Below the pieces are notes generated by a model that saw only the letters and a list, made by a program, of their open reading frames with translations, ran no database searches and was not told the origin of the DNA. The position numbers and the translations under genes are program-made. Below, piece by piece: positions 1,341 through 62,307 of a stretch of DNA of 64,000 bases (position 1 is the first letter of the stretch; each line of letters starts with the position of its first letter). Source of the DNA: Bacteroidales bacterium (GTDB taxonomy: Bacteria; Bacteroidota; Bacteroidia; Bacteroidales; P3); contig JAFTFL010000008.1 in the NCBI GenBank assembly GCA_017449525.1, positions 1,864 to 65,863 on the forward strand, given 5' to 3'.

Positions 1341-1376
1341 AGAGGCGATGCGTTACCACGGTAGCGCATCGCCTCT
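1341..1376 (+). terminator. Hairpin terminator
   Basis: 12-bp perfect stem AGAGGCGATGCG / CGCATCGCCTCT, 30 nt after the stop at 1311. Confidence 0.6.
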
Positions 1377-1590
1377 CTACTTTGTAGCAGCGGCGGGGCG
1401 GTGTTTTCGGCACGACCCTACCGCAGCCACTGCACACCCTCCTGGTGGTCTGCCGCAGGCCGTCAGGAGGCATACTACGGGGCATCGTCGCCACGTTATA
1501 TGGTGGCTGATGCCTCGTATTGCACCGTTGCAATCCCCGACGCACCGCACCGAAACCACATCAACACCAACCACATTACCCCCTATCGCC

Positions 1591-3309
1591 ATGTCCACAT
1601 CCCTCCACCGTCCGCTCCGTGCCCTATGTTGCGCCACCTTGCTGCTCCTGGCAGCCGTGCCAGCTGTTGCCCAGAAGTACACGACCTCCAATTCCAAAGC
1701 CATCAAGCAGTACGAGAAAGGCCGTGAGGCACTATTCCAGTCGCGCGGTGCCGAAGCCGTGCGCCACTTCGAGCAGGCGCTGCAGACCGACTCAACCTTT
1801 GCCGAACCGGCCATCATGTTGGCCGAATGGTATGTGGATGCTAAGGACGAGGCGCGTGCGGCCACCTACTATCGCACCCTGCTGCGCCACCACCCCGACT
1901 TCTTCGTGCGCGCCTGGGTGGCCCTGGGCAACATCGAGTTGCGCCGAGGCAACAACGCTGAGGCCGAGCAACTCTTTGCCTCCTTCCTTGAACGGCGAGG
2001 CACCTCGCCTGCCGACCGCGCCGAGGCCGAGCACGGACGCGCCTGCGCCAAGTTCCGCGCCGATGCGGTAGCGCACCCCGTCGATTTCCGCCCCGAAAAT
2101 CTGGGACCCAACGTCAACACCGCCGCTGGCGAATACCTACCAGCGCTCACGGCCGACGGCCGCACCCTGGTGTTCACACGCCGTGTGCCGCGCCGCCCCT
2201 CCACCACAGCGCGTACACCCGAGGAGGAGGATTTCTACCAGTGCACGGCCACGCCTGACGGCTGGAGCCGCGCCGTCCGCATGAGTGAACCCCTCAACAG
2301 CAACGACAACGAGGGTGCCCAGTGTATATCGCGCGACGGCCGCCTCATGATATTCACCGCTTGCGACCGACGCGATGGTGCCGGCCGCTGCGACCTCTAC
2401 ATCTGTACGCGCCACGGCGACCGTTGGAGCCGTCCGCTCAACATGGGGCCGGCCATCAACACCTCGGCATGGGAGGCACAGCCGTCGCTCTCCGTCGACG
2501 GTCGTACACTCTACTTCGTCAGCAACCGCAAAGGGGGCTACGGCGGCATGGACATCTGGCGCAGCACTATGAGCGACGGCGGCTGGAGCCAACCCGAGAA
2601 CCTTGGCCCCACCATCAATACGGCTGGCGACGAGAGCAGCCCCTTCATCCATTTCGATGACAGCACATTCTACTTTGCTTCGACTGGTCATGTGGGCATG
2701 GGCGGCAGCGACCTCTTCGTGTCGCGCCACCAGGCCGACGGCAGCTGGTCCTCACCGCGCAACCTGGGCTACCCCATCAACACCGCCGCTGACGAATCGG
2801 GCCTCATCGTGCATCCTGATGGCCATACGGCCATCTACGCCAGCGACCGTCTCGAGGGCTACGGCAGTCAAGACCTCTACAGCTTCGAACTGCCCGTCGA
2901 AGTGCGTCCGCAGGCTGTGGCCTACCGCGAAACGCTCGACACGCTGCTGCCCACCCTCGAGGTGGGTAGTACCATCACCCTGCAGAACATCTTCTTTGCC
3001 ACTGGCAGCTACGCGCTGTTGGAGCCTTCGAAGGTGGAGCTGGACCGCTTGGCCGAGTGGCTGCTGAAGCACCCGTCGGTCAAGGTGGAGCTGGGTGGCC
3101 ATACGGACAATGTGGGGCGCGCCGAGTCCAACCTCACCCTTTCTCAGCAGCGTGCCAAGGCGGTGCGCGACTATCTGGTGCAATGTGGCGTGGAGGCTGG
3201 GCGGCTCACCTCCCGTGGCTATGGCGACACGCAGCCCGTGGCTTCGAACGACACCGAGGAGGGGCGCGCCGCCAACCGTCGCACCACCTTCACCCTGCGC
3301 GAGAAGTAG
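1591..3309 (+). CDS. OmpA-family protein with TPR region, PD40 (TolB-like) beta-propeller repeats and a C-terminal OmpA peptidoglycan-binding domain
   Basis: Start moved to the ATG at 1591, which yields a signal peptide (LLLLAAVPAVAQ). Repeated DGRTLxF motifs are present. The C-terminus reads HTDNVG...NLTLSQQRAKAV..YL...RGYGD..P...N......NRR, an OmpA_C pattern. Confidence 0.85.
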   Translation: MSTSLHRPLRALCCATLLLLAAVPAVAQKYTTSNSKAIKQYEKGREALFQSRGAEAVRHFEQALQTDSTFAEPAIMLAEWYVDAKDEARAATYYRTLLRHHPDFFVRAWVALGNIELRRGNNAEAEQLFASFLERRGTSPADRAEAEHGRACAKFRADAVAHPVDFRPENLGPNVNTAAGEYLPALTADGRTLVFTRRVPRRPSTTARTPEEEDFYQCTATPDGWSRAVRMSEPLNSNDNEGAQCISRDGRLMIFTACDRRDGAGRCDLYICTRHGDRWSRPLNMGPAINTSAWEAQPSLSVDGRTLYFVSNRKGGYGGMDIWRSTMSDGGWSQPENLGPTINTAGDESSPFIHFDDSTFYFASTGHVGMGGSDLFVSRHQADGSWSSPRNLGYPINTAADESGLIVHPDGHTAIYASDRLEGYGSQDLYSFELPVEVRPQAVAYRETLDTLLPTLEVGSTITLQNIFFATGSYALLEPSKVELDRLAEWLLKHPSVKVELGGHTDNVGRAESNLTLSQQRAKAVRDYLVQCGVEAGRLTSRGYGDTQPVASNDTEEGRAANRRTTFTLREK

Positions 3310-3363: not shown

Positions 3364-4065
3364 ATGAAGAAGAAGATAATAGTCCTTACTGGTGCGGGCA
3401 TCAGTGCCGAGAGTGGCATCAGCACCTTCCGCGACAGCGACGGCCTGTGGGAACACTACCGAGTGGAGGATGTGGCCACCCACGAGGCCTATTTGCGCAA
3501 CCCACGCCTGGTGCTCGATTTCTATAACGAACGGCGCCGTCAGCTCTTCGCCGCCCAGCCCAACGAAGCTCACCGTCAGTTGGTACGCCTTGAGGAAGCC
3601 TACGATGTGCGCATCATCACCCAGAACATTGATGACCTGCATGAGCGTGCCGGCTCCTCGTTTGTACTGCATCTGCACGGCGAGCTGACCAAGGCACGCA
3701 GTGAGCGCGACGAGCACCTGCTCGTGGAGATAGGCAACCGTGATATACGGCTGGGCGACACCGCCCCCGACGGAGCGCAGCTGCGCCCCCACATCGTGTG
3801 GTTCGGCGAAGCAGTGCCGGCCATCGAACCCGCTATGGCCTTGTGCGAGCAGGCCGACTACTTTGTGGTGATAGGCACTTCGCTGGTAGTCTACCCCGCG
3901 GCGGGGCTGATACACTACGTGCCACGCGCGACCCCCTGCTTCCTCGTCGACCCGAAGGAGGTGGCTGTGCCGCGTCCCTGCACGGTGGTGCAGGAGCCGG
4001 CCACGGTGGGTGTGAAGCGTGTGGTAGATAGGTTGTTGGAAATAGCAGTGGAGGAGCAGGCATGA
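3364..4065 (+). CDS. cobB: NAD-dependent protein deacylase, sirtuin (CobB/Sir2 family)
   Basis: N-terminal LTGAGISAESGISTFRDSDGLWE, plus ITQNIDDLHERAG and HLHGEL. Its 233 aa is typical of a housekeeping sirtuin. Confidence 0.9.
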   Translation: MKKKIIVLTGAGISAESGISTFRDSDGLWEHYRVEDVATHEAYLRNPRLVLDFYNERRRQLFAAQPNEAHRQLVRLEEAYDVRIITQNIDDLHERAGSSFVLHLHGELTKARSERDEHLLVEIGNRDIRLGDTAPDGAQLRPHIVWFGEAVPAIEPAMALCEQADYFVVIGTSLVVYPAAGLIHYVPRATPCFLVDPKEVAVPRPCTVVQEPATVGVKRVVDRLLEIAVEEQA

Positions 4066-5258
4066 GGCGGATGATGTGCTGTAGGATGGCTGTGGTGGTG
4101 CTGGTGGTGGCATGCTGCTTCGGTGTGCAGGCGCAAGAGGTGGTGTGCGGAGCCCAGCGCACCACGTTCTACATGCCGCTGCTGCGCGGACAGCGCGTGG
4201 CCGTGGTGGCTAACGGGGGTTCGGTGCTGACCAGCCAACGGGGCAAAGTGCACCTTGTGGACACGCTGCTGCACGCCGACGTGGCACTGCGGCGCATCTT
4301 CTGCCCAGAGCATGGCTTTCGGGGCACGGCCGAGGCAGGTGCACATGTGGAGGACGGGCGCGACGCGGCCACGGGGCTGCCCATCGTGTCGCTCTACGGC
4401 AAGAACCGCAAGCCTACGGCCGAGCAACTGGCCGACATCGACGTGGTGCTATTCGACCTACAGGATGTAGGCTGCCGCTTTTACACCTATATATCTACGC
4501 TGCACTACGTCATGGAGGCATGCGCAGAGCAGGGCAAGCGCGTCATTGTGCTTGATCGCCCCAACCCGAACGGCCACTATGTGGACGGCCCTGTGCTGGA
4601 CACGTCACTGCGTAGTTTCGTAGGCATGCACCCGGTGCCCATCGTCTATGGGCTCACTGTGGGGGAGTATGCACAGATGATCAATGGAGAGCGTTGGCTG
4701 AAGGGGGCGCAGCAGTGTGCGCTGACGGTGGTGCCCCTGCTGAACTACAGCCACCGCCAGGCTTATGCACTGCCCGATGACGCGGAGCCCCCGTCGCCCA
4801 ACTTGGTAAGCAAGCGTGCCGTGTGGCTCTATCCAGGCCTCTGCCTGTTTGAGGGTACGACCGTCAGTGTGGGGCGCGGCACCGACGACCCGTTCACCGT
4901 GGTGGGCACACCTACTTCGCGCCTGCACGAGAGCCACTTCACTCCGCGCTCTTTGCCCGGACGCAGTGCGCATCCGCTCCACGAGGGCAAGCGCTGCTAT
5001 GGCCCCGACCTAAGCGGTGCCGCGCTGCCAGCGGACAGCCTCCTGCTGTGGCCACTGCTGCGGCTCTACGAGAGCACCCCTCACAAAGGTTTCTTTCTGA
5101 ACAACGGCTTCTTCGACCTGCTGGCAGGCACACGCCAATTGCGCAGACAGATAGAACAGGGCCTGAGCGAAGCCGCCATTCGCACCTCGTGGCAGGCCGA
5201 CCTGCAGCAGTACCGCGCGCGACGCAAACTCTATCTGCTCTACCCCGACTTTGACTGA
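4062..5258 (+). CDS. DUF1343 family protein (NamZ-like exo-beta-N-acetylmuramidase family)
   Basis: Signal peptide, then LLRGQRVAVVANGGS ... DVVLFDLQDVGCRFYTYISTL ... VLDRPNP, which is characteristic of DUF1343. ATGA overlap with cobB. Confidence 0.75.
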   Translation: MRRMMCCRMAVVVLVVACCFGVQAQEVVCGAQRTTFYMPLLRGQRVAVVANGGSVLTSQRGKVHLVDTLLHADVALRRIFCPEHGFRGTAEAGAHVEDGRDAATGLPIVSLYGKNRKPTAEQLADIDVVLFDLQDVGCRFYTYISTLHYVMEACAEQGKRVIVLDRPNPNGHYVDGPVLDTSLRSFVGMHPVPIVYGLTVGEYAQMINGERWLKGAQQCALTVVPLLNYSHRQAYALPDDAEPPSPNLVSKRAVWLYPGLCLFEGTTVSVGRGTDDPFTVVGTPTSRLHESHFTPRSLPGRSAHPLHEGKRCYGPDLSGAALPADSLLLWPLLRLYESTPHKGFFLNNGFFDLLAGTRQLRRQIEQGLSEAAIRTSWQADLQQYRARRKLYLLYPDFD

Positions 5259-5289: not shown

Positions 5290-5630
5290 CCCAACCTTAC
5301 CCCGACTCCCCAGTTTGGTTCGAAGGACAAGGCGTAGGCTTGTGTAGTTACTCACTTCATCCCAGGTGAGAGAATTGTGCTTATAGACCTTCAGCCCTGT
5401 ATGTTCTTTATAAGAGCTGCCACCTCGAGCCCTGTTGCGGTGGGTGTCCATTGTGCTGCTGGGCAATGTGTACCTTTGTGATTTGACGGATTGCTTCCCA
5501 TTACAGCAGTCCATAATACTCGTGTTACTTCTGTCTTGCCGATACAGTAGTCGTCGAGCTATACTTCATGTTCGGGTTCATTAGCACTCTTGTACCCCAT
5601 GGAGAATGTGCCATCAGGCACAAGCACCAT
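5290..5630 (-). pseudogene. Remnant of a formylglycine-generating-enzyme (FGE/SUMF1) family gene, truncated and interrupted
   Basis: The minus strand reads MVLVPDGTFSMGYKSANEPEHEV-TAG-LDDYCIGKTEVTRVLWTAVMGSNPSNHKG. These match the FGE-sulfatase hallmarks (VPGGTFxMG, IGKxEVT, WxxVMGxNPS). An in-frame TAG and then at least one frameshift follow. The 3' part is missing. Confidence 0.6.
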
Positions 5631-5681
5631 GCCGAGCCGTACACCGTATACCTCCAAGGTGTGTGGTTATTGGAAGGTAGT

Positions 5682-7019
5682 TTACTGGTTCTGGGGGGTA
5701 CGATTGAACGTCAAGGGTATTTCGCTCTGTTGGCCTGCGGCAATATTCACTGAGGTGCGAACGGTGTCGTAGCCTGGTAGGAGAACGGCCACGATGTGGG
5801 TGCCGACGAGGAACTGCGCAGAGAAATAGGGCGTGGTACCCACGCGTTTGCCGTCGATATAGAGGTCGGCACCCGACGGTTTTGAGGTTACGAGGAGGCT
5901 GCCATAGAGGGGCGTGGGGGCTTCGAGGGGTACGGTGATGTCGGGGCTGCCGGCTGGGATGTGCTTGGATGCCGAGGAGGGGCGGTGCCCATTCAGTTTG
6001 CATTCCACCAAGTAGGTGCCCGCCTCGAGGTTGTCTACCACACGACCTCGGCCGCGCAGCACGCCGTTAATCCATATCTCGGCGTTGTTGCCTACGGTGA
6101 AGGTTACGCGGGTGGAGTTGGTTACCAGTAGGGGGGAGAGGTCGGTGGTCTGCCCGTCGAACACGGTGAAAGTGGACTCGTAGGGCTTGTAGAGCGGCTT
6201 GATGATGCGCAGGGTGTGCTGCCCCGAGGGTATTCCTTCGGTAGTGAGGGGTGCCATGCCTTGGCGTTCGCCGTCCACGTAGACGTTGCCGCCATTCGCG
6301 GTCGTGCTGCCCACCTTCAGTGTGCCGTAGGCTGGCCGCAGCTTTATTGTTTTCTCCACTTTGTGCTTGGCGTTGTCCACCACCACCTTGCCTACCTCGG
6401 CATGGTGGTGGGGCGCCTCCACTCGGTAGTCGTAGCTACCGAAGCGCACGAATTTTTCTACTACGCCGTTGGCATCGGGTTCGAACACCGTGCCATCGAA
6501 GTGGACTAAGGCGTTGTGGGGTTGTACCTTGAAAACGACGAACTGTTGCCTGGTGGAGGGCATACGGTTGGCGAGGTTGTCATCAGTCTTGCCGCCTGCG
6601 GAGAGGCGCATGATGTAGGTGCGCGCCGACTGCAAGGGCGTGGGAAATTCGTAGTTGCGCAGCGTAAGATAATCCTTGTGGTGGATGGTCAAGCGGCGTG
6701 CTTTTGCAGGCAAGTACACCCACACTTCGCCCTCCTTCTGCACTGTCTTCCACACGCCGATGGTGCCTGCTTCGAAGTTCAGCCCCTGCAGCGTTGTCTC
6801 TACTTTGACCAAGGCGCACACCTCTCCGTTCTGGTCCAACTCTTGGGTAACGGAGGTGTTGGCGGTCTGGTCGCGCCCGTCAAGATAAAAGCGTGTAACG
6901 CTCAGTTCTTGGGCTGACAGGATGCCTGTGCATAGAAGCAACATGCAGGCAGTAGCCCATACGCGCCGCCCTCCTGCGGCGATGGATGGGCGGTGGTACA
7001 TGATGTATGGTGCTGCCAT
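5682..7019 (-). CDS. Secreted PEGA-repeat protein (paralogous N-terminal module shared with the upstream gene)
   Basis: Signal peptide. Several PEGA units, for example TSKPSGADLYIDGKRVGTTP...GTHIVAVLLPGYDT. The start lies 5 nt after the stop of the preceding gene. Confidence 0.85.
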   Translation of the reverse strand: MAAPYIMYHRPSIAAGGRRVWATACMLLLCTGILSAQELSVTRFYLDGRDQTANTSVTQELDQNGEVCALVKVETTLQGLNFEAGTIGVWKTVQKEGEVWVYLPAKARRLTIHHKDYLTLRNYEFPTPLQSARTYIMRLSAGGKTDDNLANRMPSTRQQFVVFKVQPHNALVHFDGTVFEPDANGVVEKFVRFGSYDYRVEAPHHHAEVGKVVVDNAKHKVEKTIKLRPAYGTLKVGSTTANGGNVYVDGERQGMAPLTTEGIPSGQHTLRIIKPLYKPYESTFTVFDGQTTDLSPLLVTNSTRVTFTVGNNAEIWINGVLRGRGRVVDNLEAGTYLVECKLNGHRPSSASKHIPAGSPDITVPLEAPTPLYGSLLVTSKPSGADLYIDGKRVGTTPYFSAQFLVGTHIVAVLLPGYDTVRTSVNIAAGQQSEIPLTFNRTPQNQ

Positions 7020-7024
7020 GGTGC

Positions 7025-10000
7025 TTAGTAAGAATAATAGTAGTTGTAGGAATTGGAGGTAGTGCTGGATTCGCTGTCCATTTCATCGGCCATAGCAGCG
7101 ATGCCCCAGATGGTGACCCCTATCAGACTACCAGTAAGGGCCCAGCCCAGTCCGATGCCGACGGTGGGAACGAGGTGCCCACCATAGACCATGCTACCGA
7201 GTGTGAGGTCCCACCAGGCGAATTCGCGGTTCTTGGCACCACTGAATCGGAGGCCAAAGTTGCCAGCAAAGTGGTTGCTGCCGTCGTAGGCGTGGCCAAA
7301 TCCCCCATAGAGTTGAAAGTCCAGCTTATTGCTTTCGCCCGTGAGGCGCAACACCAAATTAGCAGTCCCATTACGCATGCCGTCGCCAAAGTGAGCGGAA
7401 GCTTGGAATCCGATGTGCGCTGGGACATAGGCTACATTAAGGCCGAGCATGGGCATCTCCTTGTTGTCGTCGTACGCAATTGAGGTATTGACAAACCAGG
7501 AGGCGAAGTGTGTGCGTAGGCTCTTTGTGGCCCAGTCGCTGGAAAGGCCAGCAATGGGTAGCCATAGTGGTGCGGTGGGAATGCCCAGACCAATGCCGAC
7601 ATGAGGCATCACACCGCCCTTGAAGATGCTCATGCCCGCATTGATATCGAATAGAGCTAAGTGATCCAGCACGTCCTCTTTCCAACAGAGGCGGATGCCA
7701 AGGTCTGCACCCCAATGCGAACCAGTGTCGGTAGTGGAGGTGGTGTGCATGACAACGCCGTTGACAGTGATGTCGGTAGGGGAAGTGATTCCTAATGCGG
7801 GACCACCGTAAAGTTGGAAGTCCACGTTGGCATTTTTCCGTCCGAGGCGGAGCACAGGTCCCAGGGCACCGAAAAAGGAGGAGCCGTCTGTCAGCGCCAT
7901 GGTCGTAAGCCCTAACCTTCGAGGTACCCAGGCAAACTGGCCTCCAAACTGCCAGGCATGGGGGTCGAATGTTGGATAGCCAGCCGTAGCATTCAGGAAT
8001 AAATGTTGTTTGTTCTTGAAGTTATTGGTTCTTCTATTAGAGGTGTTGGTATTGCCGCTTGCAGTGGGTTGGGTGAACTTGATGGTTTTGGTGAACGTAT
8101 TTGTAGTCACGGTGACAGTGGCGGTGCGCGCCAATTTGCCTTGGTTGCCAGTGTAGGTGATGGAGAATCCATCGGTAGTACGTTTGACGGCGAGCCAGTT
8201 GGCATCGCTTCTTGCGGTGAATGAGTCCGAGGCATTTACGCGGAAGGTGGCTGTCCCTTCGGCCGAGGTCAGCGTCATTGTGCTGTTGACTATCTGATTG
8301 GCTACATTGTAAACAAATAGCCAGTTGGTTGGGTAGATATAGACAGAGGTGCTATATATCTTTTTGCCTTCCACCCACAATTCGATGCGGTAGGAGCCAG
8401 CGGTGTAGTTTGATTGGGTGGCGTTGCCCCACCCACTGACGACCACATTATGGTTTGGGCCAGGCTGGACGTAGATTGTGTTAGAGTAGCTGTAGCCAGC
8501 AGGAGAACTGCTGCCCACCTTCAGTGTGCCATCGGGGTTGTAAATCTTGACGTAGACAATTACCTCTTTAGAGGTGTTGCATAGGCCGTCGTAGTAGATT
8601 GTGGGTTTTATATAACGCATCTCGTTTGCTTTCAGTGGACTGCCAGCACCAGTAAGCACCTTGCCGTCCTCAGCTGTATTACGGAATTCAACCCGATTTA
8701 CTCGCATATAGCCCTGCGAGGCGTAGCGCGACTCTTCGACTTTCATAGTGATGTTGTAGGTTTGGCTGCTGCCTTCTGCCACGGTGAATGTACCGCTGTA
8801 GTCTTCATAGCCCGAGGCGGTGGCGCGCACGTTGTGCTGGCCGAGCGATAGTTGCGCGGTGCTTCCTGTGATGACCTGTCCGTCCACGTAGATGTTGGCC
8901 GAGGGCGCATTGCAGTTGAACGTTACGGTGACGGTGTTCTTCAGTTCGGCTGCCACCTCGGAAGTCTTGCCCTCCTCCACCGTTACCGTTCGTGAGAAAG
9001 TGCCATAGCCGTTGCGGCTGAGTTCCAAGCGGTGTGTGCCAATGAGTACGCGCGACAGCTGTAGCGGGGTCTCACCCACAGCGGTGCCGTCCAACTTCAC
9101 TTGAGCCATAGGGGGAGTGGAGGTGATGACCACCTTGCCATAGATTGGGGTAGGAGAGGGCAGGTCGATGGTGCGGCCATTCATGGCAGGGGAGACGGTG
9201 AGCGTCTTCTTTGCAGGGCGGTGGGCGGTGCGCTGCACCTCCACATTCAGTGCCCCGCTGGCGAAGTTGTCAGTTACGCTGCCTGTGCCCCTTCGGCTTC
9301 CATTGATGAAGATGGCATCGCCTTCGGCCGCTTTGAGGATGAGCCGCGCAAAGTCGGCTCGTAGCGTGGGGGCTACGACGGTGGTCTGCTCGTCATGCAC
9401 GGTGATGGTGGTGTCGAAGGGGGCATACAGCTCCTTGATGAGCTTTAGGTTATGTCTACCCGAGAGGATGCCGCTCAGCACTTTCGGCGCGGTGCCCTGC
9501 TGCGCGTTGTCCAGCACGATAGTAGCACCCGAACTCGAAGAGCCTTTGATTTCGATGTTGCCGAAGTTGGGCTTGAGGCGTATGTCCCTTATCACTTTGT
9601 CGTGGCTCACTGTGATTTTGCCTGCATTGGAGTGGTACATGGCGCGTTCCACTCTGTAGTCGTAGGTGCCCGGAGCCATCAGTTTGCTGGTGAATTCCCC
9701 ATTGGTGCCTATCAGGGGCTTGTTGTCAAAGGTTACGACGGCATCAGTGGGCGACACCTTAAATACTACGAACTGCCCCTGATCTTCCTCCTCAACAAAC
9801 ACATGTATAGTGGCAGAAGTGAGTTCCATAATGTAGGTGCGGGCAGACTCCAACTTAATGGGGAACTCGTAGTTGCGTAGGGTGCCAGCCTGCTGGTGCT
9901 GGATGGTGATGCGCCGTGCTCTATGCGGCAGATACACCCACACTTCGCCTGTTTTCTGCTCTGTCTTCCACACGCCGATGGTGCCTGCATCGAAGGTGAG

Positions 10001-10189
10001 CCCTTGCAGTGTGGTTTGCACCTTGACGAGTGCACACACCTCTCCGTTCTGGTCCAGCTCTTGGGTAACGGAGGTGTTGGCGGTCTGGTCGCGCTCGTCA
10101 AGGTAGAAGGCTTTGACGGAGAGTTGGCTCTGCGCAAAGGCTGCGGTGGAGAAGACCAGGGCGAGTAGTAGGGGCAATATTCTCTTCAT
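7025..10189 (-). CDS. Large secreted PEGA-repeat protein with a BACON-like domain and a Gly-rich hydrophobic C-terminal domain
   Basis: Signal peptide MKRILPLLLALVFSTAAFAQ. At least 5 PEGA units (for example TSTPPMAQVKLDGTAVGETP...GTHRLELSRNGYGT). BACON-like segment FRVNASDSFTARSDANWLAVKR...ARTATVTV. The last ~320 aa are internally duplicated. Confidence 0.85.
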   Translation of the reverse strand: MKRILPLLLALVFSTAAFAQSQLSVKAFYLDERDQTANTSVTQELDQNGEVCALVKVQTTLQGLTFDAGTIGVWKTEQKTGEVWVYLPHRARRITIQHQQAGTLRNYEFPIKLESARTYIMELTSATIHVFVEEEDQGQFVVFKVSPTDAVVTFDNKPLIGTNGEFTSKLMAPGTYDYRVERAMYHSNAGKITVSHDKVIRDIRLKPNFGNIEIKGSSSSGATIVLDNAQQGTAPKVLSGILSGRHNLKLIKELYAPFDTTITVHDEQTTVVAPTLRADFARLILKAAEGDAIFINGSRRGTGSVTDNFASGALNVEVQRTAHRPAKKTLTVSPAMNGRTIDLPSPTPIYGKVVITSTPPMAQVKLDGTAVGETPLQLSRVLIGTHRLELSRNGYGTFSRTVTVEEGKTSEVAAELKNTVTVTFNCNAPSANIYVDGQVITGSTAQLSLGQHNVRATASGYEDYSGTFTVAEGSSQTYNITMKVEESRYASQGYMRVNRVEFRNTAEDGKVLTGAGSPLKANEMRYIKPTIYYDGLCNTSKEVIVYVKIYNPDGTLKVGSSSPAGYSYSNTIYVQPGPNHNVVVSGWGNATQSNYTAGSYRIELWVEGKKIYSTSVYIYPTNWLFVYNVANQIVNSTMTLTSAEGTATFRVNASDSFTARSDANWLAVKRTTDGFSITYTGNQGKLARTATVTVTTNTFTKTIKFTQPTASGNTNTSNRRTNNFKNKQHLFLNATAGYPTFDPHAWQFGGQFAWVPRRLGLTTMALTDGSSFFGALGPVLRLGRKNANVDFQLYGGPALGITSPTDITVNGVVMHTTSTTDTGSHWGADLGIRLCWKEDVLDHLALFDINAGMSIFKGGVMPHVGIGLGIPTAPLWLPIAGLSSDWATKSLRTHFASWFVNTSIAYDDNKEMPMLGLNVAYVPAHIGFQASAHFGDGMRNGTANLVLRLTGESNKLDFQLYGGFGHAYDGSNHFAGNFGLRFSGAKNREFAWWDLTLGSMVYGGHLVPTVGIGLGWALTGSLIGVTIWGIAAMADEMDSESSTTSNSYNYYYSY

Positions 10190-10207
10190 GGGTAATCGGT
10201 TTTGGGC

Positions 10208-11719
10208 TCAACGCACCAAGATGGCGGTGGCCTTGCTGTTGTCCATTTTAGGCATAGTCATGCCGACACGTGCACCGATGTATGTGGGGTCGGCTATCGT
10301 GTAGCGTGCGCCGTCCACCACAATGTAGTCGCCACCCACACTGACCGATGACGGGAAGCGCACTGCAGCATAGAGGTGCCCAGGATGGTAAATAAGTGCC
10401 ACGTCGAGCTGCACCAGGTCGCGCACCAGCCTTGAGAAAAGGATGGCGCGGTCTTCGCAATCGCTGTAGGGGTAGTGCAGCGTCTCCTCCGCAAAGAACG
10501 GGCGGTCGCCTCCCCATATTGAGTCGTCGTAGCCATAGACAAAGGCTGTCTGCACAAAGTTGAGCAGCACCTCCACCTTCTCCAGTGTGCCTTTGCCGTC
10601 AATGGCTTTCTGCAGGGTGGGGTAGAGCGAGCGGCGCACGGGCTCACTCAGCGGAGTGAGTGCATAGTAGCGCCACACCGTTTTGTAGTCCACCGCTGCG
10701 TAGCTGCGCGGATAGCGATTGAAGAAGTCTATCAGATTCTGGTTGGTTTCGATGGTGGCCTGTACTTCTGGGTAGCGTTTGGACTGCAGGGTGCGGCGTG
10801 TGCCAGTGTGCGATCCGAACAGATTGTGCTGCGCATTGACCATGCGGGCGGCCTGCTCGCCTGGCAGGGTGGCAGACGAGATGTAGAGACGGTTCACGGA
10901 GGCTTCGTTGTCAATCAAGTAGTACTCTCGGTTATCAATAGTCCAGTAGGAGTACTTGAATAGGCGACTGTCGGTAGCGAGCAAGGTGTAGAGCCGTCCG
11001 TCGGTACGTCCCATGCGCACACGGAAACCGCTTTGAGCCAGCAGGAACATGTGCATGGCGGTGCGCTCATTAACGAGTGAGGCGGCGGGGTAGCACGCCG
11101 CGGCCACCTCACGCAGCAGTTGTACGTAGGCCCAGTCGCACAGGTCGTGGTCGGTGCGAGTACGCAGGCAGTCGCTCAGCAGATTGTTGGTACGTCCATC
11201 GCAGAGCGTCTGCCACAGGCGCGACACTTCTTGCTCGCTCACGCCGCCGAGGTGCGGCAGCTGTGAGGCATCGCAGCGCAACGAGGCCTCAATGCCGAAA
11301 TAGTGCACCTTGACGTAGCGCACCACAGGCTGGGGCACCTCGCGTATAGGTGCTGGGGGCGCGGGTGCAGGCTCGGGTTTCGGGGTGGGCTGCACCTTGA
11401 CTGGTATGCGATTGCCGTCGGGAAGCGGCTGCGGACGGGGTGTGGGCTCGGGGGCCACAATAGGCACGACTGGGTCTTCCTTGATGGGCTTGGGCTCTGG
11501 CAGGGGCTTGTGCCCAGGCATGTCCTTCCAAGCCTCCTTGAGGAAGTCGGCATATTCCTTATTGATTTCGCCGAGGAAGTTGTTGTACTCCTCCTGTATT
11601 TCGCGACGGAAGTCGGCAAACGACTTGCGGAAGTCGTCCTGCTTGTCGTTCTGGGCGTTGCCCCATGCAGGGAGCAACAGCATCAAGGCGACAGCGGCGG
11701 GGCGTAGTGTGTGGTTCAT
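10208..11719 (-). CDS. Secreted protein with a Pro-rich linker and a C-terminal transglutaminase-like cysteine protease fold
   Basis: Start set at MNHTLRPAAVALMLLLPAWGNAQ. Candidate Cys-His-Asp triad in YPYSDCEDRAILFSRLV ... YHPGHLYAAV ... YTIADPTY. Confidence 0.8.
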   Translation of the reverse strand: MNHTLRPAAVALMLLLPAWGNAQNDKQDDFRKSFADFRREIQEEYNNFLGEINKEYADFLKEAWKDMPGHKPLPEPKPIKEDPVVPIVAPEPTPRPQPLPDGNRIPVKVQPTPKPEPAPAPPAPIREVPQPVVRYVKVHYFGIEASLRCDASQLPHLGGVSEQEVSRLWQTLCDGRTNNLLSDCLRTRTDHDLCDWAYVQLLREVAAACYPAASLVNERTAMHMFLLAQSGFRVRMGRTDGRLYTLLATDSRLFKYSYWTIDNREYYLIDNEASVNRLYISSATLPGEQAARMVNAQHNLFGSHTGTRRTLQSKRYPEVQATIETNQNLIDFFNRYPRSYAAVDYKTVWRYYALTPLSEPVRRSLYPTLQKAIDGKGTLEKVEVLLNFVQTAFVYGYDDSIWGGDRPFFAEETLHYPYSDCEDRAILFSRLVRDLVQLDVALIYHPGHLYAAVRFPSSVSVGGDYIVVDGARYTIADPTYIGARVGMTMPKMDNSKATAILVR

Positions 11720-11774
11720 GAGGGTGTGTGGTTGTTGTTCGCAGTGTGGACGGTGGCAGTGGGGCATGGTGGTA

Positions 11775-13568
11775 TCAGAAGTCTTCCATGCCGTATACGC
11801 GGTTCAACTCTGGGTCGGGCTTATCCTGCCAGGTGCGCACCTTGATAACTGGGCTGTCGGGGTCGTTGAGGTCCACCTGCAGGTATAGGTAGCCTGAGTC
11901 TCCGTAGTGCGTAGAGTAGTAGTCCTGCTTGATTTGTATACCGTAGGTCTCGCCCGTGTGCTGGCCGCCCTTCTTCACGTCGTTGCTGCCGAAGCGTATG
12001 TTCACATATTCATTCTTCGTGAAAGTGTGCTTCAGTCGGGTGATATACTGGTCTTTGGTGAGCTGAGTACGTTCTACATAGCGGTTGGCTCCGTAGCGGT
12101 TGTCGTTGACATTCGCACGGATTATGATGCGCCCCATAATGATGACGGCATGCTGGTCGAAGATGGATTCGATGTAGTCCGCACGCTTGAGGGCGAAGGC
12201 CGTCTTGTAGTTTTCGAGAAAACTGATGAGCACGGCGCGTGCTTCGGGTGGCCATGACCCCTTGTTCAGTATGTCGGCGGTGGCTGCCTCGTCGAGGCCG
12301 AAGGTAACGTTCTCCACTTTGCCCTCCTTATTGAAGGTGAACACCACGTTCTCCACAAAACTCTTGCGAGCTGCCTGCTTATAGGAGAAAGACATGGGGA
12401 CACTGCGTGCCACGAGTCGATCGCCATAGGTGGTAACGGTGATTTTGTTAAAGTCAAGCACGCGTACGCTACCGTTGTGCATGAGGGTGTCGAAGATGCC
12501 GCGTCCCTCGCGCGTAAAGTAGTGGTGTGCATCGGCAGGGCGGTGAGCGCGTATGGCCTTCACTATTTCGCCTACGGTGTTGGTTACGTGGTCGACAGCC
12601 TTTCCTGATGGGGCATCGAGCCGTACATCGGTGGTGGCACGACGTGGGGTGGCAGGAGTTTCCGGCGTGGTGCGCTGAGTCAGATGCACTTCGGTATAGG
12701 CCGAGGTGAGGGCGCGGCTTTGAACGGTCTCCAGCACCTCTTTCACCTCGCTGTCGAGCACTTTGGCTTGTCCCCTGTATACATATTCATATTTCAGCTT
12801 GACCACCTTGGGGGTGTAGCCCGAGGGCAGTTCGAGCACACCTCGTCCGTCGCGAGCGCTGTAGATGTTGGTCCAATCGCGTCCGTCGAAATAGGTGTAG
12901 TCCAAACTGCGAACGGGTTGTCCGCGGAAGGTGAAGTGCAGGTCAACATCCGAACCGCTGACAAGCCCCGTGTTCACTTTGATGTCGGCAAACACAGCGT
13001 TCATTCGGGCCGGTATGTAGGTAGACAACTGGTGCCCATCGCCATCTTTCACCTCGTTGGGGTACTGCATGGTTTTGAGCAGTGTATAAGCCCAGTAGTA
13101 GTCCTTCAGTGCTTCGTCCACCTTGCCTTCGCCCTCGGCCTTGACGGCCAGCCTGAGGTACTCAAGTATCTTCAGCCGTCGTCCTTCGTATATGCGCCCG
13201 ATCTCGCTGCGCTTGATATAACGACCCACGATGGCATCTGGTTCATTCTTGATGATGATGCGCTCGGTGTTGGTGAGCGTAGCCTCTGAGAAAGTCTTGA
13301 CTTTGGAGCGGTAGTAGCTCTGGTAATCAAAAGAGCCGTTGCTGTTGCGCTCATCGTCAATGATGGTGGTGGAGTCGGCCACGCGCATTGATATCTGACT
13401 GATGAGGTCGGCCAACGCCCGTTTATCGGCCTCTTCGTTGGTGGCTCCGGTGCCTTTACCACTGATGTAGACGCTACGGTTGGACACGATGTCGTCCCAA
13501 CTCTGCGCGCAGAGTGGGACGACCGAGGTCAGCAGCATGATGATGAGGGTGATGCTGGTGCGATTCAT
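11775..13568 (-). CDS. Secreted protein with an LPP20-like N-terminal domain (tentative), otherwise unknown
   Basis: Start set at MNRTSITLIIMLLTSVVPLCAQ. The N-terminus YISGKGTGATNEEADKRALADLISQISMRV resembles the LPP20 lipoprotein family pattern. Confidence 0.8.
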   Translation of the reverse strand: MNRTSITLIIMLLTSVVPLCAQSWDDIVSNRSVYISGKGTGATNEEADKRALADLISQISMRVADSTTIIDDERNSNGSFDYQSYYRSKVKTFSEATLTNTERIIIKNEPDAIVGRYIKRSEIGRIYEGRRLKILEYLRLAVKAEGEGKVDEALKDYYWAYTLLKTMQYPNEVKDGDGHQLSTYIPARMNAVFADIKVNTGLVSGSDVDLHFTFRGQPVRSLDYTYFDGRDWTNIYSARDGRGVLELPSGYTPKVVKLKYEYVYRGQAKVLDSEVKEVLETVQSRALTSAYTEVHLTQRTTPETPATPRRATTDVRLDAPSGKAVDHVTNTVGEIVKAIRAHRPADAHHYFTREGRGIFDTLMHNGSVRVLDFNKITVTTYGDRLVARSVPMSFSYKQAARKSFVENVVFTFNKEGKVENVTFGLDEAATADILNKGSWPPEARAVLISFLENYKTAFALKRADYIESIFDQHAVIIMGRIIIRANVNDNRYGANRYVERTQLTKDQYITRLKHTFTKNEYVNIRFGSNDVKKGGQHTGETYGIQIKQDYYSTHYGDSGYLYLQVDLNDPDSPVIKVRTWQDKPDPELNRVYGMEDF

Positions 13569-13575
13569 CGGCTCA

Positions 13576-14214
13576 TCAATCGTCGAATGCTTCCTGCACA
13601 AACTTGCTCACGCGGTCGGCGTATTTTTGTGCGGCAGCCGACTCTTTGGCAGCCTGCTCGAAGGCACGCATACGAGCCTTGCTTGCTGCCACTTCGTCCA
13701 CGGTGAAGTAGCCTTCGTATTGGTACGTATTAGAGCCCTTTTCCTTCTGGCGTTTCACCATGAAGGACATCTGCAACTCGCCTTTAATCTCTTTCTCTAC
13801 TTTGCTTTCGTAGGCCGAGTAGAAGTTGTCGAACTCGTTCTTTGCTTCATCGGAGAGGTTGCTGTTCATGTCCTCAATCATGCGGCCGCGGATGTGCTGG
13901 CCACAGGAGAGGGCATACTGCTGGGCGGCACTGGCGATGACGCGCTGACGTCCCACGTTGTCGATGGAGCTTTCTGCTACGCCCGTTACCTGCGACACAC
14001 CGTCTTTTTCCAACCTCTCGTAGTGCTTGAGCAGTTCCACCTCAATGGTGCGAGCTGAGCCTGCCAGTTTCCAACCGTCTTTGTTGAAGGCTTTGATGCG
14101 CTTGGTGTACTCTTTTTTCATCTCTTTCTTCATCTGACGGCTCTGCGCGTTTGCTGTAGGGGCAACCATCAGGCTCATGGCCATGACGAGCATGGGTAGA
14201 AGCAGTTTTTTCAT
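13576..14214 (-). CDS. Small secreted Lys/Glu-rich protein, possibly LPP20-like, first gene of the operon
   Basis: Start set at MKKLLLPMLVMAMSLMVAPTANAQ. Its stop lies 7 nt before the next gene's start. Confidence 0.75.
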   Translation of the reverse strand: MKKLLLPMLVMAMSLMVAPTANAQSRQMKKEMKKEYTKRIKAFNKDGWKLAGSARTIEVELLKHYERLEKDGVSQVTGVAESSIDNVGRQRVIASAAQQYALSCGQHIRGRMIEDMNSNLSDEAKNEFDNFYSAYESKVEKEIKGELQMSFMVKRQKEKGSNTYQYEGYFTVDEVAASKARMRAFEQAAKESAAAQKYADRVSKFVQEAFDD

Positions 14215-14517
14215 ACTTGTGTTGGTTTTAAATAAAATATGTGTTGAAATGAATTGTCGTAGTCGTAAGCTTTCGAGGCGGTAACGGCTGGGAAATGGTT
14301 GCCGCGTCGAGGCATACGGAGGGTTTCGTCGCCCGAGGCCCAAGGGCATAGCCCCACCGTGTGGTCGGGTGCGGCCACAGGCAGAAGCGGGCGGGACGAA
14401 GCAGGATAGTTTAGGTGTACAGCAGTGAATAGCCCACCGTCAGTTCTTTTCGGGGGGGGTGATAATCAACCAATTACAAGTGTGTTTCACTACTAATCCT
14501 ATCAAATTTACGAGGTG

Positions 14518-14525
14518 CAAAGATA
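14518..14525 (-). promoter_or_regulatory. -7 promoter box (TATCTTTG on the minus strand) for the 14214-5682 operon
   Basis: The plus strand reads GGTGCAAAGATAC. This is the only TAnnTTTG match between the OMP gene and the operon, and it implies a ~295-nt leader. Confidence 0.5.
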
Positions 14526-14674
14526 CTATTTTCCCACTACATAGGAGCGCTTGACGCAGGAAAATTGTGGCGCTCCATCCACAGGTGAGCATTGCGGAGG
14601 AGCGCAGGGAAAGAAAGATGGCGCAACCGAGGCATTGGTTGCGCCGTGGAGTGGAGGTCAGAGTCTACCACTGT

Positions 14675-15301
14675 TTAGAATTCTACTCCATACTGAATGG
14701 AAAGTTGTGTGCCCACCATGGAGCGGTTGGAGTTCAGCGTTCCCATGTAGCCTGCAGGGACGGGTTTCTCCTTGTCCTGCAGACCTTGGTAGTGAAACAT
14801 CTGGTAGTTGACCCCGATGTATTGGGCGTCAGAGATGAAGTACCTCAAGCCAATAGAGGCGGTGGACAGCATGCCCCAACGGTTCAGTTCGAACGATTCA
14901 TTGGATAGGGAGTACTCGTTGTGTACATGAGCAGCCGCTGCGCCGATGCCTATGGTGGGCTTCCACCGCTGGGCGGTTGGAATGAGGAGGAGGAACTCCG
15001 CCCCAACGTTGGTCATGCGTGCTGACTCGTCGTTGAATTCAACGAGATTGGTCTGTCCGAATGTCAGTCGCAGGTCAAGACAGCTGAGCATCAAGCCAAC
15101 GTGAGCGTTTAGGCCAAAGCCAAAGGCTGCGTTATCGTTGTCGTGGACCAGCCAAGGCGAGGGAGGTCCCATGAATTTTGTTCCGCCGAGTTGTATTCCC
15201 GCATCGGTCTTTATACGATTGTTGTTTTCCTGCGCCGAAGCTACCATTGTTGCGGATAGCAAAGCCAGTACGACAACAAGTTTTTGAAAGATGTGTTTCA
15301 T
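14675..15301 (-). CDS. Small outer-membrane beta-barrel protein (OmpW/OprF-N-like porin family)
   Basis: Signal peptide, alternating hydrophobic beta-strand pattern, Gly/aromatic girdle residues and a C-terminal ...QYGVEF ending in Phe. Confidence 0.8.
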   Translation of the reverse strand: MKHIFQKLVVVLALLSATMVASAQENNNRIKTDAGIQLGGTKFMGPPSPWLVHDNDNAAFGFGLNAHVGLMLSCLDLRLTFGQTNLVEFNDESARMTNVGAEFLLLIPTAQRWKPTIGIGAAAAHVHNEYSLSNESFELNRWGMLSTASIGLRYFISDAQYIGVNYQMFHYQGLQDKEKPVPAGYMGTLNSNRSMVGTQLSIQYGVEF

Positions 15302-15936
15302 ATGTTGTTTGTGTTAAATATGTAAGTGTATGTTCTAATGCATAGAGTATTTGTGTCTACACTTAGATTATCTAAGTATAAGACGAATTATGTCTCCTAC
15401 GATGTGTTCATTTTCTGCTCTCCTTTCTATCCACCTTACATGGATGTTACTTGTTATACAATAGATAAACTAACCAAGTAGAGAGGCCTTGACGCGCATT
15501 TTACAACTTCAACAGTAGAGAGGCCAGTTCTACAATCGTACCCCTACAGTGTCGTTGGTTTTCGAATAATCACCCATCGCATTAACTCGATGGACAATCT
15601 TTTTGTGGTTTAAACCGAGTGAAAATGTACGGAATAATATATAACTATCCAAATATTTTTCACAGATTTGGTGAAGGTGTAAGTGATATTCATAGTATCA
15701 ATGAAATAATGAGAATACAAGAGGATGGCATAGCCTATACTTACATAGGTAGCTCGGTTTGCGAACATATACAAAATAAGGAAAAGCAGTATTAAGCCAG
15801 TTATGTGGAGCCCAAATTCTCTCTAATTTGCCCGTTAAGTCTGCCCATATTCTTCAGTATATTGGCGATTTTAATGGAAAGATTATTTAGAAAGAGAGGG
15901 AAAGTGGTCCAATGGATGTACGCCGTGGGGTGCGAT

Positions 15937-16197
15937 GCTGTACGGGAGCGCGCTCGATGCTGTAGGGGATCTGCCCCTGTGCTGTACGGCATGGAAACGA
16001 TTCATGCGGTTGTGCCACACTGAAGTAGGTGGATGCTATGTACTGTGCCGTACGGCTAAGCGTCGGCTACTGTACGGCAGGGGGACTGTGTTCGGAAGAA
16101 AAGGGGGGAAGAGGGTGAGGTGCGGATAGGGCAGTGTAGTGGGGTGGATGCACCGCAGCGGTGGCGTGCTTTGCCGTTTTTCCACAGTGCAAAGGTA
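15937..16197 (-). repeat. Promoter-linked GTACGGC palindrome array, copy B (TACCTTTG box at 16190-16197 plus 4 palindromes)
   Basis: GTAC cores lie 115, 137, 203 and 247 nt downstream of the box. No convincing ORF is present. Confidence 0.6.
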
Positions 16198-16247
16198 CGA
16201 AAAAACTGCTGTTCGAACAGTGGTTGCGGCTCGGTGGGGTGCAAAAT

Positions 16248-16280
16248 AGTGAACGCTTGACTATTGGCCAAGCGTTCACT
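16248..16280 (-). terminator. Hairpin terminator (second of two) after the lipoprotein gene
   Basis: 12-bp stem AGTGAACGCTTG / CAAGCGTTCACT followed by ATTTTG on the minus strand. Confidence 0.6.
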
Positions 16281-16293
16281 ATACATGGTGTGT

Positions 16294-16311
16294 GCGGCAC
16301 GGGGGTGCCGC
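16294..16311 (-). terminator. GC-rich hairpin directly after the stop at 16319
   Basis: GCGGCAC-GGGG-GTGCCGC. Confidence 0.45.
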
Positions 16312-16318
16312 TTAGGGT

Positions 16319-17203
16319 TTAGAAGTTGACTTGAATTTCGGTGCCGTAGGTGGTGTTGAAGCGGAACGTGCCTGCGCCCTCGGCCGTGAAGGGGTTGCCC
16401 GTGAGGACGGTGGTGTGGTTGCGCATCAGCGGTACAGGGGTGAGCCGCTTTGTGAAGGCCGTGGTGGCACCTTGCTTGGCGCGGATGACTACTTCGGTGG
16501 TGAGCGAGTCGGTGGTAAGCAAAGTGTACATGGTCTTGGTGCCTGCGCTGGTGTTGGCCGAGCAGAAGCGGATGGGCTCGGAGGCGGTGGCTAACCCTGT
16601 GGTGGGGTTGAGCCGTCGGCCACCGTTGGCAATGGTGATTTCGATGGAGTCGACATCGGCAGGGGCGGCCGGGTGCACGAGTTGCAGGCGTGCCACGGCA
16701 CGTTGCAGTTCGGCGTTGAGCACGATGGTGTCGCTGCCGCGCACCGCCACATCGCCTACGAAGCAAAAGCAGTCGCGGATGACGTCCTCGGGAAAGAGGG
16801 CTGCGGTGGGCGACAGAACCACGGCGGGCTGTGAGGATTTGTAGCCCAGCACCACCAACTTGTAGTTTCCAGCCTCGAGGGTGGCTCCGTAGTCGCCAAA
16901 GGCGGAGGTGTAGGAGGCTGGTGTGTCCTTCTCTTGATGGCAGGAGTCGACGATGGTGGTGCCTGTGTTGTCGAACAGGTAGACCGAGATGCGCGATATG
17001 CCAGCGCTGTCGGCCGAGGTGCTTTTGCGTGTGCTCATGGGGGTAAGGTCGATGTCCATGCCACCCGTGCGCACCAGCAGGTAGCCCTGGCCAGAGCGAG
17101 TGTCGATGTAGTTGGACTCTTTGTCGCAGGAACTGATGCTCAAGGCAAAGACCAAAATGACGGATAGGAGTGTGGCGCGGATAAGGTGGGGGTGATGCCT
17201 CAT
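16319..17203 (-). CDS. Lipoprotein, possibly with a FimB/Mfa2-like fimbrillin fold (tentative)
   Basis: Start set at MRHHPHLIRATLLSVILVFALSISSC (lipobox). Size, beta-rich composition and the LQRAVARL motif resemble Mfa2-family anchor subunits. The functional call is weak. Confidence 0.7.
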   Translation of the reverse strand: MRHHPHLIRATLLSVILVFALSISSCDKESNYIDTRSGQGYLLVRTGGMDIDLTPMSTRKSTSADSAGISRISVYLFDNTGTTIVDSCHQEKDTPASYTSAFGDYGATLEAGNYKLVVLGYKSSQPAVVLSPTAALFPEDVIRDCFCFVGDVAVRGSDTIVLNAELQRAVARLQLVHPAAPADVDSIEITIANGGRRLNPTTGLATASEPIRFCSANTSAGTKTMYTLLTTDSLTTEVVIRAKQGATTAFTKRLTPVPLMRNHTTVLTGNPFTAEGAGTFRFNTTYGTEIQVNF

Positions 17204-17231
17204 GAGGTGTTGAGTGTTGATGGGGTAGGAG

Positions 17232-58393: not shown

Positions 58394-58481
58394 GGAGAGG
58401 TGGGTGAGTGGCTGAAACCAACAGTTTGCTAAACTGTCGTACTCGATTAGGGTACCGGGGGTTCGAATCCCCCCTTCTCCG
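58394..58481 (+). tRNA. tRNA-Ser (anticodon GCT)
   Basis: Acceptor GGAGAGG/CTTCTCC, anticodon loop TTGCTAA, long variable arm and T-loop GGTTCGAATCC. Confidence 0.9.
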
Positions 58482-58506
58482 CAATAAGTGGCAAGGGAGT
58501 AAGACT

Positions 58507-58581
58507 CGGGATATGGCGTAGTCCGGTTATCGCGCCTGCTTTGGGAGCAGGAGATCGCAAGTTCGAATCTTGCTATCCCGA
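58507..58581 (+). tRNA. tRNA-Pro (anticodon TGG)
   Basis: Acceptor CGGGATA/TATCCCG, anticodon stem CCTGC/GCAGG with loop TTTGGGA, and T-loop GTTCGAATC. Confidence 0.9.
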
Positions 58582-58588
58582 CAGAAAG

Positions 58589-58619
58589 GGAAGCTTACTT
58601 CGGTAGGCTTCCTTTTTTT
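58589..58619 (+). terminator. Hairpin terminator with UUCG tetraloop and T7 tail
   Basis: GGAAGCTTAC-TTCG-GTAGGCTTCC followed by TTTTTTT. Confidence 0.75.
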
Positions 58620-58621
58620 GC

Positions 58622-61863: not shown

Positions 61864-61866
61864 CAG

Positions 61867-62257: not shown

Positions 62258-62270
62258 TGTGGATGAGCAT

Positions 62271-62302: not shown

Positions 62303-62307
62303 GCGTT

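Follow-up and report, generated by a model that had tools for sequence, protein, structure and literature searches.

What do five tightly packed genes for apparently secreted proteins do together, when the NCBI annotation calls three of the products hypothetical and the other two PEGA domain-containing? The question is raised by genes G1 to G5, which run on the minus strand from 14214 down to 5682 of the 64,000-nucleotide stretch analysed here (the window; positions 1,864 to 65,863 of contig JAFTFL010000008.1, assembly GCA_017449525.1), part of a metagenome-assembled genome of a gut Bacteroidales bacterium. A sequence-only reading of this DNA had proposed an uncharacterised secreted envelope operon, and not a metabolic one. 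Our searches bear this out: nothing in Pfam, NCBIfam, PADLOC, PHROGs, PDB or the literature searched matched the operon as a known system (0 families for all five proteins among the PADLOC defence models, none in PHROGs), profile searches of these databases placed the proteins in no characterised system, and we found no paper describing this gene combination. Taken singly, the parts belong to known superfamilies, in which they make up new families or domains; their combination has no described counterpart. We find that the operon is one version of a modular gene cluster, with a constant core of G3 and a G1-like gene and two alternative adaptor-client sets.

The five co-directional open reading frames, taken from a program-made list, are:

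13576-14214, minus strand: G1, 212 amino acids, predicted secreted and probably LPP20-like protein, core partner of G3
11775-13568, minus strand: G2, 597 amino acids, predicted secreted protein with an LPP20-like N-domain
10208-11719, minus strand: G3, 503 amino acids, predicted secreted enzyme of transglutaminase fold with a Cys-His-Asp triad, anchor of the module
7025-10189, minus strand: G4, 1054 amino acids, predicted secreted protein with an N-domain, a PEGA array and further domains
5682-7019, minus strand: G5, 445 amino acids, predicted secreted protein with an N-domain and a PEGA array

We fixed the start codons from homologue alignments and from gene calls on a metagenomic contig of 99 % identity. 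These starts return the same gaps as the sequence-only reading, 7, 55, 18 and 5 nucleotides between G1 and G2, G2 and G3, G3 and G4, and G4 and G5. By inspection, all five N-termini (at 14214, 13568, 11719, 10189 and 7019) have the basic n-region, hydrophobic core and Ala|Gln junction of a signal peptide, as had been claimed for every product. Secreted proteins of Bacteroidota follow a reported rule of N-terminal Gln (pyroglutamate), which the Ala-then-Gln end of all five predicted signal peptides recalls.

A modular cluster across Bacteroidales

We fetched 80 species loci with G3, called their open reading frames and sorted these with domain-restricted hidden Markov models. In 59 of the 80 loci (38 of the 50 that have at least 6 kb on both sides) G3 has a G1-like gene on its own strand no more than 8 kb away, and 64 loci encode some LPP20-like protein. 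The linkage of G1 and G3, in shuffled gene order, extends through Prevotellaceae, Bacteroidaceae, Tannerellaceae, Rikenellaceae, Muribaculaceae, Paludibacteraceae, Dysgonomonadaceae and Odoribacteraceae. What accompanies this pair comes in two kinds. G2 occurs in 16 loci, 14 of which also have proteins that combine the N-domain of G4 and G5 with PEGA arrays. Another LPP20-like family, F4, with a weak match to DUF4384, occurs in 29, and 27 of these also encode secreted Sel1/TPR-caspase proteins. The G2/PEGA and F4/caspase sets are found together in 2 loci only. Thus, the co-occurrence counts describe a modular cluster in which one or the other set joins a constant core.

The full set of the window was present in 14 loci from at least six families, and the closest relatives found (50-54 % identity in G3) have all five components in a changed order, for instance G1-G2-G4-G3-G5 in L082. 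The genes grouped by the sequence-only reading, therefore, do co-occur in related genomes, among the 80 loci as well as in closer relatives; its exact five-gene set is one of two versions.

In Prevotella/Segatella loci (L008, L012, L013, L017, L023, L039 and others) at least one secreted Sel1/TPR-caspase is encoded between the G1-like gene and G3. The AGHG and DAC(F/H)SG motifs of these caspases are intact, and an LPP20-like/DUF4384-like protein of about 290 residues accompanies them; in some loci of this type a stand-alone CHASE2 membrane protein is encoded directly upstream of G3. A third arrangement upstream of G3 (L056, L066, L073 and L079) consists of a LysM protein, small lipoproteins, a protein resembling outer membrane proteins (OMPs), DUF6175 and an unannotated protein of about 315 residues; the models did not detect a G1-like gene in these four loci.

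G3, a transglutaminase-fold enzyme

G3 matched no Pfam or NCBIfam family and, as a single sequence or as a family profile, no PDB sequence. Its homologues fill more than 2,400 clusters at 90 % identity, none with a precomputed Pfam domain, so that G3 represents a large family lacking a Pfam model; matches in species-representative genomes number at least several hundred, and the 80 that we fetched are all from Bacteroidales. The protein reads, from its N-terminus, as a signal peptide, a conserved long helix, a Pro-rich spacer (11324-11506), a middle domain of about 250 residues and a catalytic core (10211-10585). The helix and the spacer are kept across 25 homologues of 41-53 % identity. The three motifs pointed out by the sequence-only reading, YSDCEDRAILF, HPGHLYAAV and IADPT, are present in the sequence, and the Cys (DCEDR), His (GH) and Asp (DPT) within them are invariant in the same 25 proteins.

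10289-10459, minus strand: codons of the G3 catalytic triad (Cys 10459-10457, His 10378-10376, Asp 10291-10289), that is, C421/H448/D477 of the 503-residue protein or C437/H464/D493 in the numbering of the 519-residue open reading frame

An AlphaFold model of G3 (pLDDT 82, pTM 0.80) places the Cys at the start of helix 437-452, the His at the start of strand 464-470 and the Asp after strand 487-492 (519-residue numbering). The best PDB fold match of this model in Foldseek is LapG (4u65_E, E 8.4e-4, probability 1.00). Further matches are LapG 4fgq, the putative cysteine protease 3isr from Cytophaga, PNGase, vasohibin, Rad4/XPC and menin, all of which have the transglutaminase-type fold in common with LapG. 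The window G3 had no match to Pfam Transglut_core at the gathering score; 11 of the 25 family members had sub-threshold matches (best E 0.002). G3 is a new family inside the transglutaminase-like cysteine-enzyme superfamily, in line with the fold that had been proposed for it. Because the catalytic triad is intact, the enzyme is probably active.

In the Lap systems of Pseudomonas and Legionella, LapG processes a large repetitive envelope protein whose gene accompanies its own. It is periplasmic, as G3 is predicted to be, and its triad has the residue order of G3, Cys-His-Asp, on the same type of fold. Unlike LapG, G3 has 503 residues with an extra helix, the Pro-rich spacer and the middle domain of about 250 residues, and none of the 25 family members matched Pfam Peptidase_C93 at E up to 1. 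Judged by sequence and by gene context, G3 is not a member of LapG/BTLCP. Secreted Bacteroidota proteins with Transglut_core (PF01841) whose structures come from structural genomics, namely 3isr and Parabacteroides 3kd4/BDI_1141, share the core fold and the triad with G3 and, like it, have no assigned function; they differ in N-terminal architecture, while G3 stays under the Pfam cutoff. The alignment of 3kd4 with the G3 model was poor (probability 0.38, root-mean-square deviation 16 Å).

LPP20-like G2 and probably LPP20-like G1

Two LPP20-like proteins had been proposed. The N-terminus of G2 can firmly be assigned to this family on sequence comparisons, and G1 more weakly. The single G2 sequence matches Pfam LPP20 below the cutoff (E 0.0036, 18.1 bits; cutoff 25.9), 14 of 19 orthologues match it, the best with E 5.9e-7, and a search with the family profile reached PDB 4kzs, an 'LPP20 lipofamily protein' (E 6.3e-5). 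Matches to the NTF2-like Cds6_C in 8 of the 19 orthologues make an NTF2-like C-terminal domain probable. The parts of G2, drawn from family Pfam matches, are:

13263-13481, minus strand: LPP20-like N-domain of G2, followed by an unassigned middle region
about 11778-12176, minus strand: probable NTF2-like C-terminal domain of G2

The single G1 sequence had no match in Pfam, and neither G1 nor G2 as a single sequence had one in PDB. The G1 family profile matches Helicobacter pylori Lpp20 (PDB 5ok8, E 2.1e-4, in an alignment that includes the signal peptide), 2 of 43 family members match Pfam LPP20 (E 0.024), and hhalign relates the family to the F7 lipoprotein subfamily of other loci (97 %) and to the N-terminus of G2 (73 %). 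The F7 proteins have a lipobox (...C(G/S)GSK); we found no canonical lipobox in G1 (...APTANA|QS) or G2 (...VVPLCA|QS).

Members of the LPP20 family (PF02169; H. pylori Lpp20/HP1456) are small envelope proteins whose genes share operons with those of further secreted proteins. G1 and G2 differ from it in their Ala|Gln sites, which are of signal-peptidase-I type and have no lipobox Cys, and G2 also in some 450 extra residues that include the NTF2-like domain. We know of no established native function for Lpp20 itself.

PEGA-array proteins G4 and G5

Both PEGA proteins of the sequence-only reading were recovered by Pfam (PF08308; cutoff 20.8 bits), G4 with E 5.5e-37 (126 bits) and G5 with E 6e-31 (106.6 bits). 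A BACON match in G4 is sub-threshold (E about 3e-4).

9800-10132, minus strand: N-domain of G4
8735-9772, minus strand: PEGA array of G4
8315-8722, minus strand: unannotated middle domain of G4
8069-8284, minus strand: BACON-like domain of G4
7091-8005, minus strand: duplicated Gly-rich hydrophobic C-module of G4
7028-7090, minus strand: acidic/Tyr-rich tail of G4
6600-6908, minus strand: N-domain of G5
5697-6557, minus strand: PEGA array of G5

The same N-domain of about 110 residues, which matched nothing in Pfam or PDB, opens both proteins. Its two copies are 79 % identical at the protein level and appear in the DNA as a direct repeat of 299 nucleotides (6609-6907 and 9827-10125, 79 % identical). 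This similarity is far above that of the remaining gene lengths, which suggests a recent duplication or gene conversion. The middle domain of G4 (residues ~490-625) carries the motifs YYDG, VKIYNPDG, SPAGYSYS and GWG and is shared with P0122, a 574-residue PEGA protein that has one copy of the G4 C-module.

The C-module, also without a match in Pfam or PDB, is present in 83 representative clusters among 1.84 billion proteins, nearly always at the C-terminus, and in PEGA proteins in 38 of 50 cases; the large protein searches with it returned only the protein of a sibling contig (L081) and one partial match. Among the 80 loci it occurs in L001 alone, and it is present as well in L082, whose G4 orthologue has 1017 residues. 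Hydrophobic and polar positions alternate along the module, a hydrophobic tail follows, and the last residue of many members is aromatic; an outer-membrane location of the G4 C-terminus is plausible. N-domain/PEGA proteins of other loci end in an OMP_b-brl-type barrel or an FGE-sulfatase domain (for the barrel end, hhalign gives 95.7 % to a family that matches OMP_b-brl_2 at 8.6e-17). Such barrel ends support a membrane tethering of the arrays. G4 and G5 share PEGA arrays with PEGA envelope/S-layer-like proteins. The type IX secretion proteins PorK/GldK are structural lipoproteins of FGE fold, in which an FGE-like domain serves as a non-sulfatase envelope module. Unlike both groups, G4 has an unannotated N-domain and C-module.

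Loss of an FGE-like domain from G5

A decayed sixth gene of FGE type had been suggested at the operon tail. The remnant is real (FGE-sulfatase, E 6.6e-7, 29.7 bits where the cutoff is 23.3) and aligns with positions 4-69 of the 255 in the profile. It is not a separate gene, being in frame with G5.

5290-5654, minus strand: decayed FGE-sulfatase domain in frame with G5 (part supported by Pfam, 5448-5633)

Two TAA codons (5684-5682 and 5669-5667) separate it from G5 and a TAG lies inside it; downstream of G5 we found no complete FGE domain in an open frame, the recognisable part being interrupted by stops. Translated through these stops, G5 aligns in a single high-scoring segment pair (residues 23-520) with an intact 669-residue PEGA-FGE protein of L085, and in the closer relatives L083 and L084 intact PEGA-FGE fusion proteins of 721-729 residues follow G3. 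The in-frame position and the collinearity with intact fusions point to domain loss: to judge from the sequence, the remnant is the decayed C-terminal domain of G5, and G5 a truncated N-domain-PEGA-FGE fusion protein.

The sibling contig L081 is 99 % identical and has G1 to G3 intact, whereas G4 and G5 each carry a 1-nucleotide indel (window 8646 and 6136; L081 11150 and 13659) that splits them into 518 + 531 and 317 + 126 residues; the one in G5 falls within a poly-C run (ctctcccccctac). Intact forms of G4/G5 were seen on six contigs. The indels could be assembly errors, ongoing decay or slipped-strand variation.

Probable boundaries of the transcription unit

14503-14525, minus strand: putative operon promoter, two adjacent Bacteroidota-type -7 boxes about 300 nucleotides upstream of G1
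14620-14645, minus strand: terminator-like hairpin that would end the upstream OMP gene and mark the 5' boundary of the transcription unit

A single TAnnTTTG box had been reported at 14518. The box is there (TATCTTTG at 14525-14518), accompanied by a second (TAAATTTG at 14510-14503); both are called by motif match. They are the only minus-strand TAnnTTTG sequences between 5682 and 14600, and the gaps between G1 and G5 contain none, in a window where the motif is common (38 observed against about 20 expected). The hairpin (14645-14620) has a stem of nine pairs, seven of them G-C, followed by ATCTTTCTTT. Together with the boxes it gives the unit a plausible boundary of terminator, promoter and leader. 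The leader of about 300 nucleotides had no Rfam match, and its folding is not unusual (z = -1.69).

The gene beyond the hairpin, at 14675-15301, is the beta-barrel OMP gene that had been noted upstream of the operon (Pfam OMP_b-brl, E 6.9e-10). It is not a member of the module: a terminator-like hairpin of its own separates it from the operon, and none of the 80 related loci contains it.

A possible mechanism and its alternatives

How might the cluster work? We propose that G1 to G5 form one transcription unit with five Sec-exported products, one version of a widespread, modular and undescribed envelope cluster. Its constant core would be a periplasmic G3, with a conserved helix and a TonB-like proline-rich spacer ahead of a transglutaminase/papain-type Cys-His-Asp core, and the small LPP20-like G1. 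Its variable part would be an LPP20-like adaptor with its client proteins. In the window these roles would fall to G2 and to the two N-domain/PEGA-array proteins, G4, ending in a membrane-type C-terminal module, and G5, which would have lost its FGE-like C-terminal domain; in the Prevotella-type version the adaptor would be the LPP20/DUF4384-like protein and the clients secreted Sel1-caspases. The PEGA arrays would lie in the periplasm, tethered to a membrane by C-terminal modules. G3 would cleave them or otherwise process them covalently, as LapG does LapA, and G1 and G2 would recruit or restrain G3. From gene context and structural analogy we infer where the products reside, which of them would be enzyme and which substrate, and that the LPP20-like proteins would serve as adaptors. 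Since the nearest structural relatives of G3 are hydrolases, it would most likely act on the co-encoded proteins as a hydrolase.

These parts differ in strength. The anatomical and modular description, taken by itself, is very probably right. The proposal as a whole, mechanism included, falls somewhat short of probable and is put forward tentatively, and the relation of protease and client, taken alone, is doubtful. In the same way it is possible, though not probable, that G3 and G1 are the core of an unrecognised modular periplasmic protein-processing system with client-specific LPP20-like adaptors and swappable clients, which would be membrane-tethered PEGA arrays, PEGA-FGE proteins or secreted Sel1-caspases.

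Several observations weigh against the proposal. The five proteins look like signal-peptidase-I substrates, a judgement made by eye. The fold match of G3 covers its C-terminal ~145 of 503 residues at 15-16 % identity, and the sequence does not tell its chemistry, which could be that of a protease, transglutaminase, deamidase or amidase. By Pfam and NCBIfam, the operon lacks a LapD-like cyclic di-GMP receptor, type I secretion genes and an RTX adhesin; its domains are PEGA, LPP20-like and BACON-like only, and its neighbours NamZ, SIR2 and the OMP. For the C-module of G4, hhalign gave at most 25 % to local OMP families, and an AlphaFold model from a three-sequence alignment reached a pLDDT of 29.7. 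In 6 of the 50 loci with full flanks, G3 stands without any recognised partner. Finally, the nearest neighbour of a G3 sequence belongs to the same module type in 39 of 52 cases against about 55 % by chance; this loose association of G3 clade and module suggests that modules were swapped repeatedly and not strictly inherited.

G3 might instead be a true transglutaminase that makes isopeptide bonds between PEGA-array proteins, giving a covalent lattice in the periplasm or on the surface. Its fold and triad are those of the superfamily, its clients would be repetitive beta-sandwich arrays fit for lattices, and the Pro-rich spacer could position it. However, its closest solved relatives (LapG, PNGase, vasohibin and 3isr) are hydrolases and not cross-linkers, the clients of the alternative type, caspase-Sel1 proteins, do not readily suggest themselves as subunits of a lattice, and Pfam shows no surface-export signal; we regard a cross-linking role as unlikely. 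The surface-layer module of the sequence-only reading is not supported: no test points there, and Pfam reported neither a C-terminal sorting domain of the type IX secretion system nor an S-layer homology domain in G1 to G5 at E up to 0.1.

The cluster could also be an extracytoplasmic counterpart of caspase-based conflict systems, in which PEGA, FGE-like, Sel1 and CHASE2 domains would bind ligands, detect an insult to the envelope (for example a phage, a toxin or a host factor) and trigger the proteases, G3 and the caspases. Related loci do encode secreted Sel1-caspases whose His/Cys motifs are intact, caspases that stand alone, CHASE2 proteins and FGE-like domains, and swappable modular clients together with a decaying G5 make a pattern typical of conflict loci. 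Moreover, three domains found around G3 in related loci, Sel1, FGE-sulfatase and CHASE2, belong to those with which bacterial homologues of caspases are most frequently fused (Asplund-Samuelsson et al. 2012, PMC3501461). In the caspase homologues, however, these domains are part of the caspase, and many of the proteins are cytoplasmic, whereas in the G3 loci they belong to separate secreted proteins that are linked with a transglutaminase-fold enzyme; the window operon encodes neither a caspase nor a CHASE2 protein. With no match in PADLOC or PHROGs and no mobile-element context seen, a conflict role is improbable as well. A guess that family F20 of some loci is an extracytoplasmic function sigma factor was not backed by Pfam and was dropped.

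Peptidoglycan stem peptides are cleaved by Cys-His-Asp hydrolases of related folds (the NlpC/P60 and transglutaminase-like superfamilies), and G3 could be a papain-like-fold amidase or endopeptidase of peptidoglycan or lipoproteins, positioned by the PEGA and LPP20-like proteins. A NamZ exo-muramidase and a TPR-PD40-OmpA protein are indeed encoded nearby in the window, but both lie on the opposite strand and are absent in all 80 related loci, so that the peptidoglycan link through NamZ was rejected. Pfam finds no peptidoglycan-binding domain in G1 to G5, and there is no NlpC/P60 structure among the listed fold matches of G3. A cell-wall enzyme is thus very unlikely. Least credible is a chance adjacency of unrelated secreted proteins without a shared function: each product alone would pass for an ordinary 'hypothetical' or 'PEGA domain' protein and the TAnnTTTG motif is common, but the same families are linked repeatedly, despite reordering, in at least eight Bacteroidales families and in closer relatives, and the gaps of 5-55 nucleotides have no internal promoter box.

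If the proposal of a G3-G1 core with swappable clients is true, it would add a new proteolytic, assembly or sensing machinery to the envelope of hundreds of species, Segatella copri and Parabacteroides among them. Few symbionts of humans and livestock are more abundant than gut Bacteroidales, and much of their envelope proteome is unannotated. An enzyme-client relation would give roles to several orphan domains and proteins: the LPP20-like proteins, the N-domain of the PEGA proteins, the C-module of G4, the caspases that Prevotella secretes and FGE-like domains that are not sulfatases; if it is false, the genes are an ordinary conserved hypothetical operon. The constant core and its two adaptor-client sets can be tested in the culturable Parabacteroides acidifaciens (strain 426-9 is locus L002), Coprobacter secundus and Segatella copri.

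Neighbouring genes

On the other side of the operon, the TPR-PD40-OmpA protein mentioned above (1348-3309, plus strand; TPR, PD40 beta-propeller and OmpA-family domains) has an architecture like that of PorE, the type IX secretion component PG1058; it is not kept beside G3 elsewhere. SIR2 (3364-4065) and NamZ (4062-5258), which follow it and overlap by 4 nucleotides, are likewise unlinked to G3 in other loci; all three genes converge on the operon.

Upstream of the OMP gene, 15302-17341 consists of an AT-rich gap (G+C content 0.42 at 15-16 kb) and a gene with weak matches to FimA/DUF6562. The corresponding position of the sibling contig (L081, 1698-4476) is occupied by an Mfa2-family gene, and a type V pilus locus probably adjoins the OMP gene here. 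Farther along the window, 58394-58696 and 61866-62385 hold a tRNA-Ser/Pro/Arg cluster, a tRNA-Asp and a tmRNA with the tag GENNYALAA, an ordinary chromosomal context.

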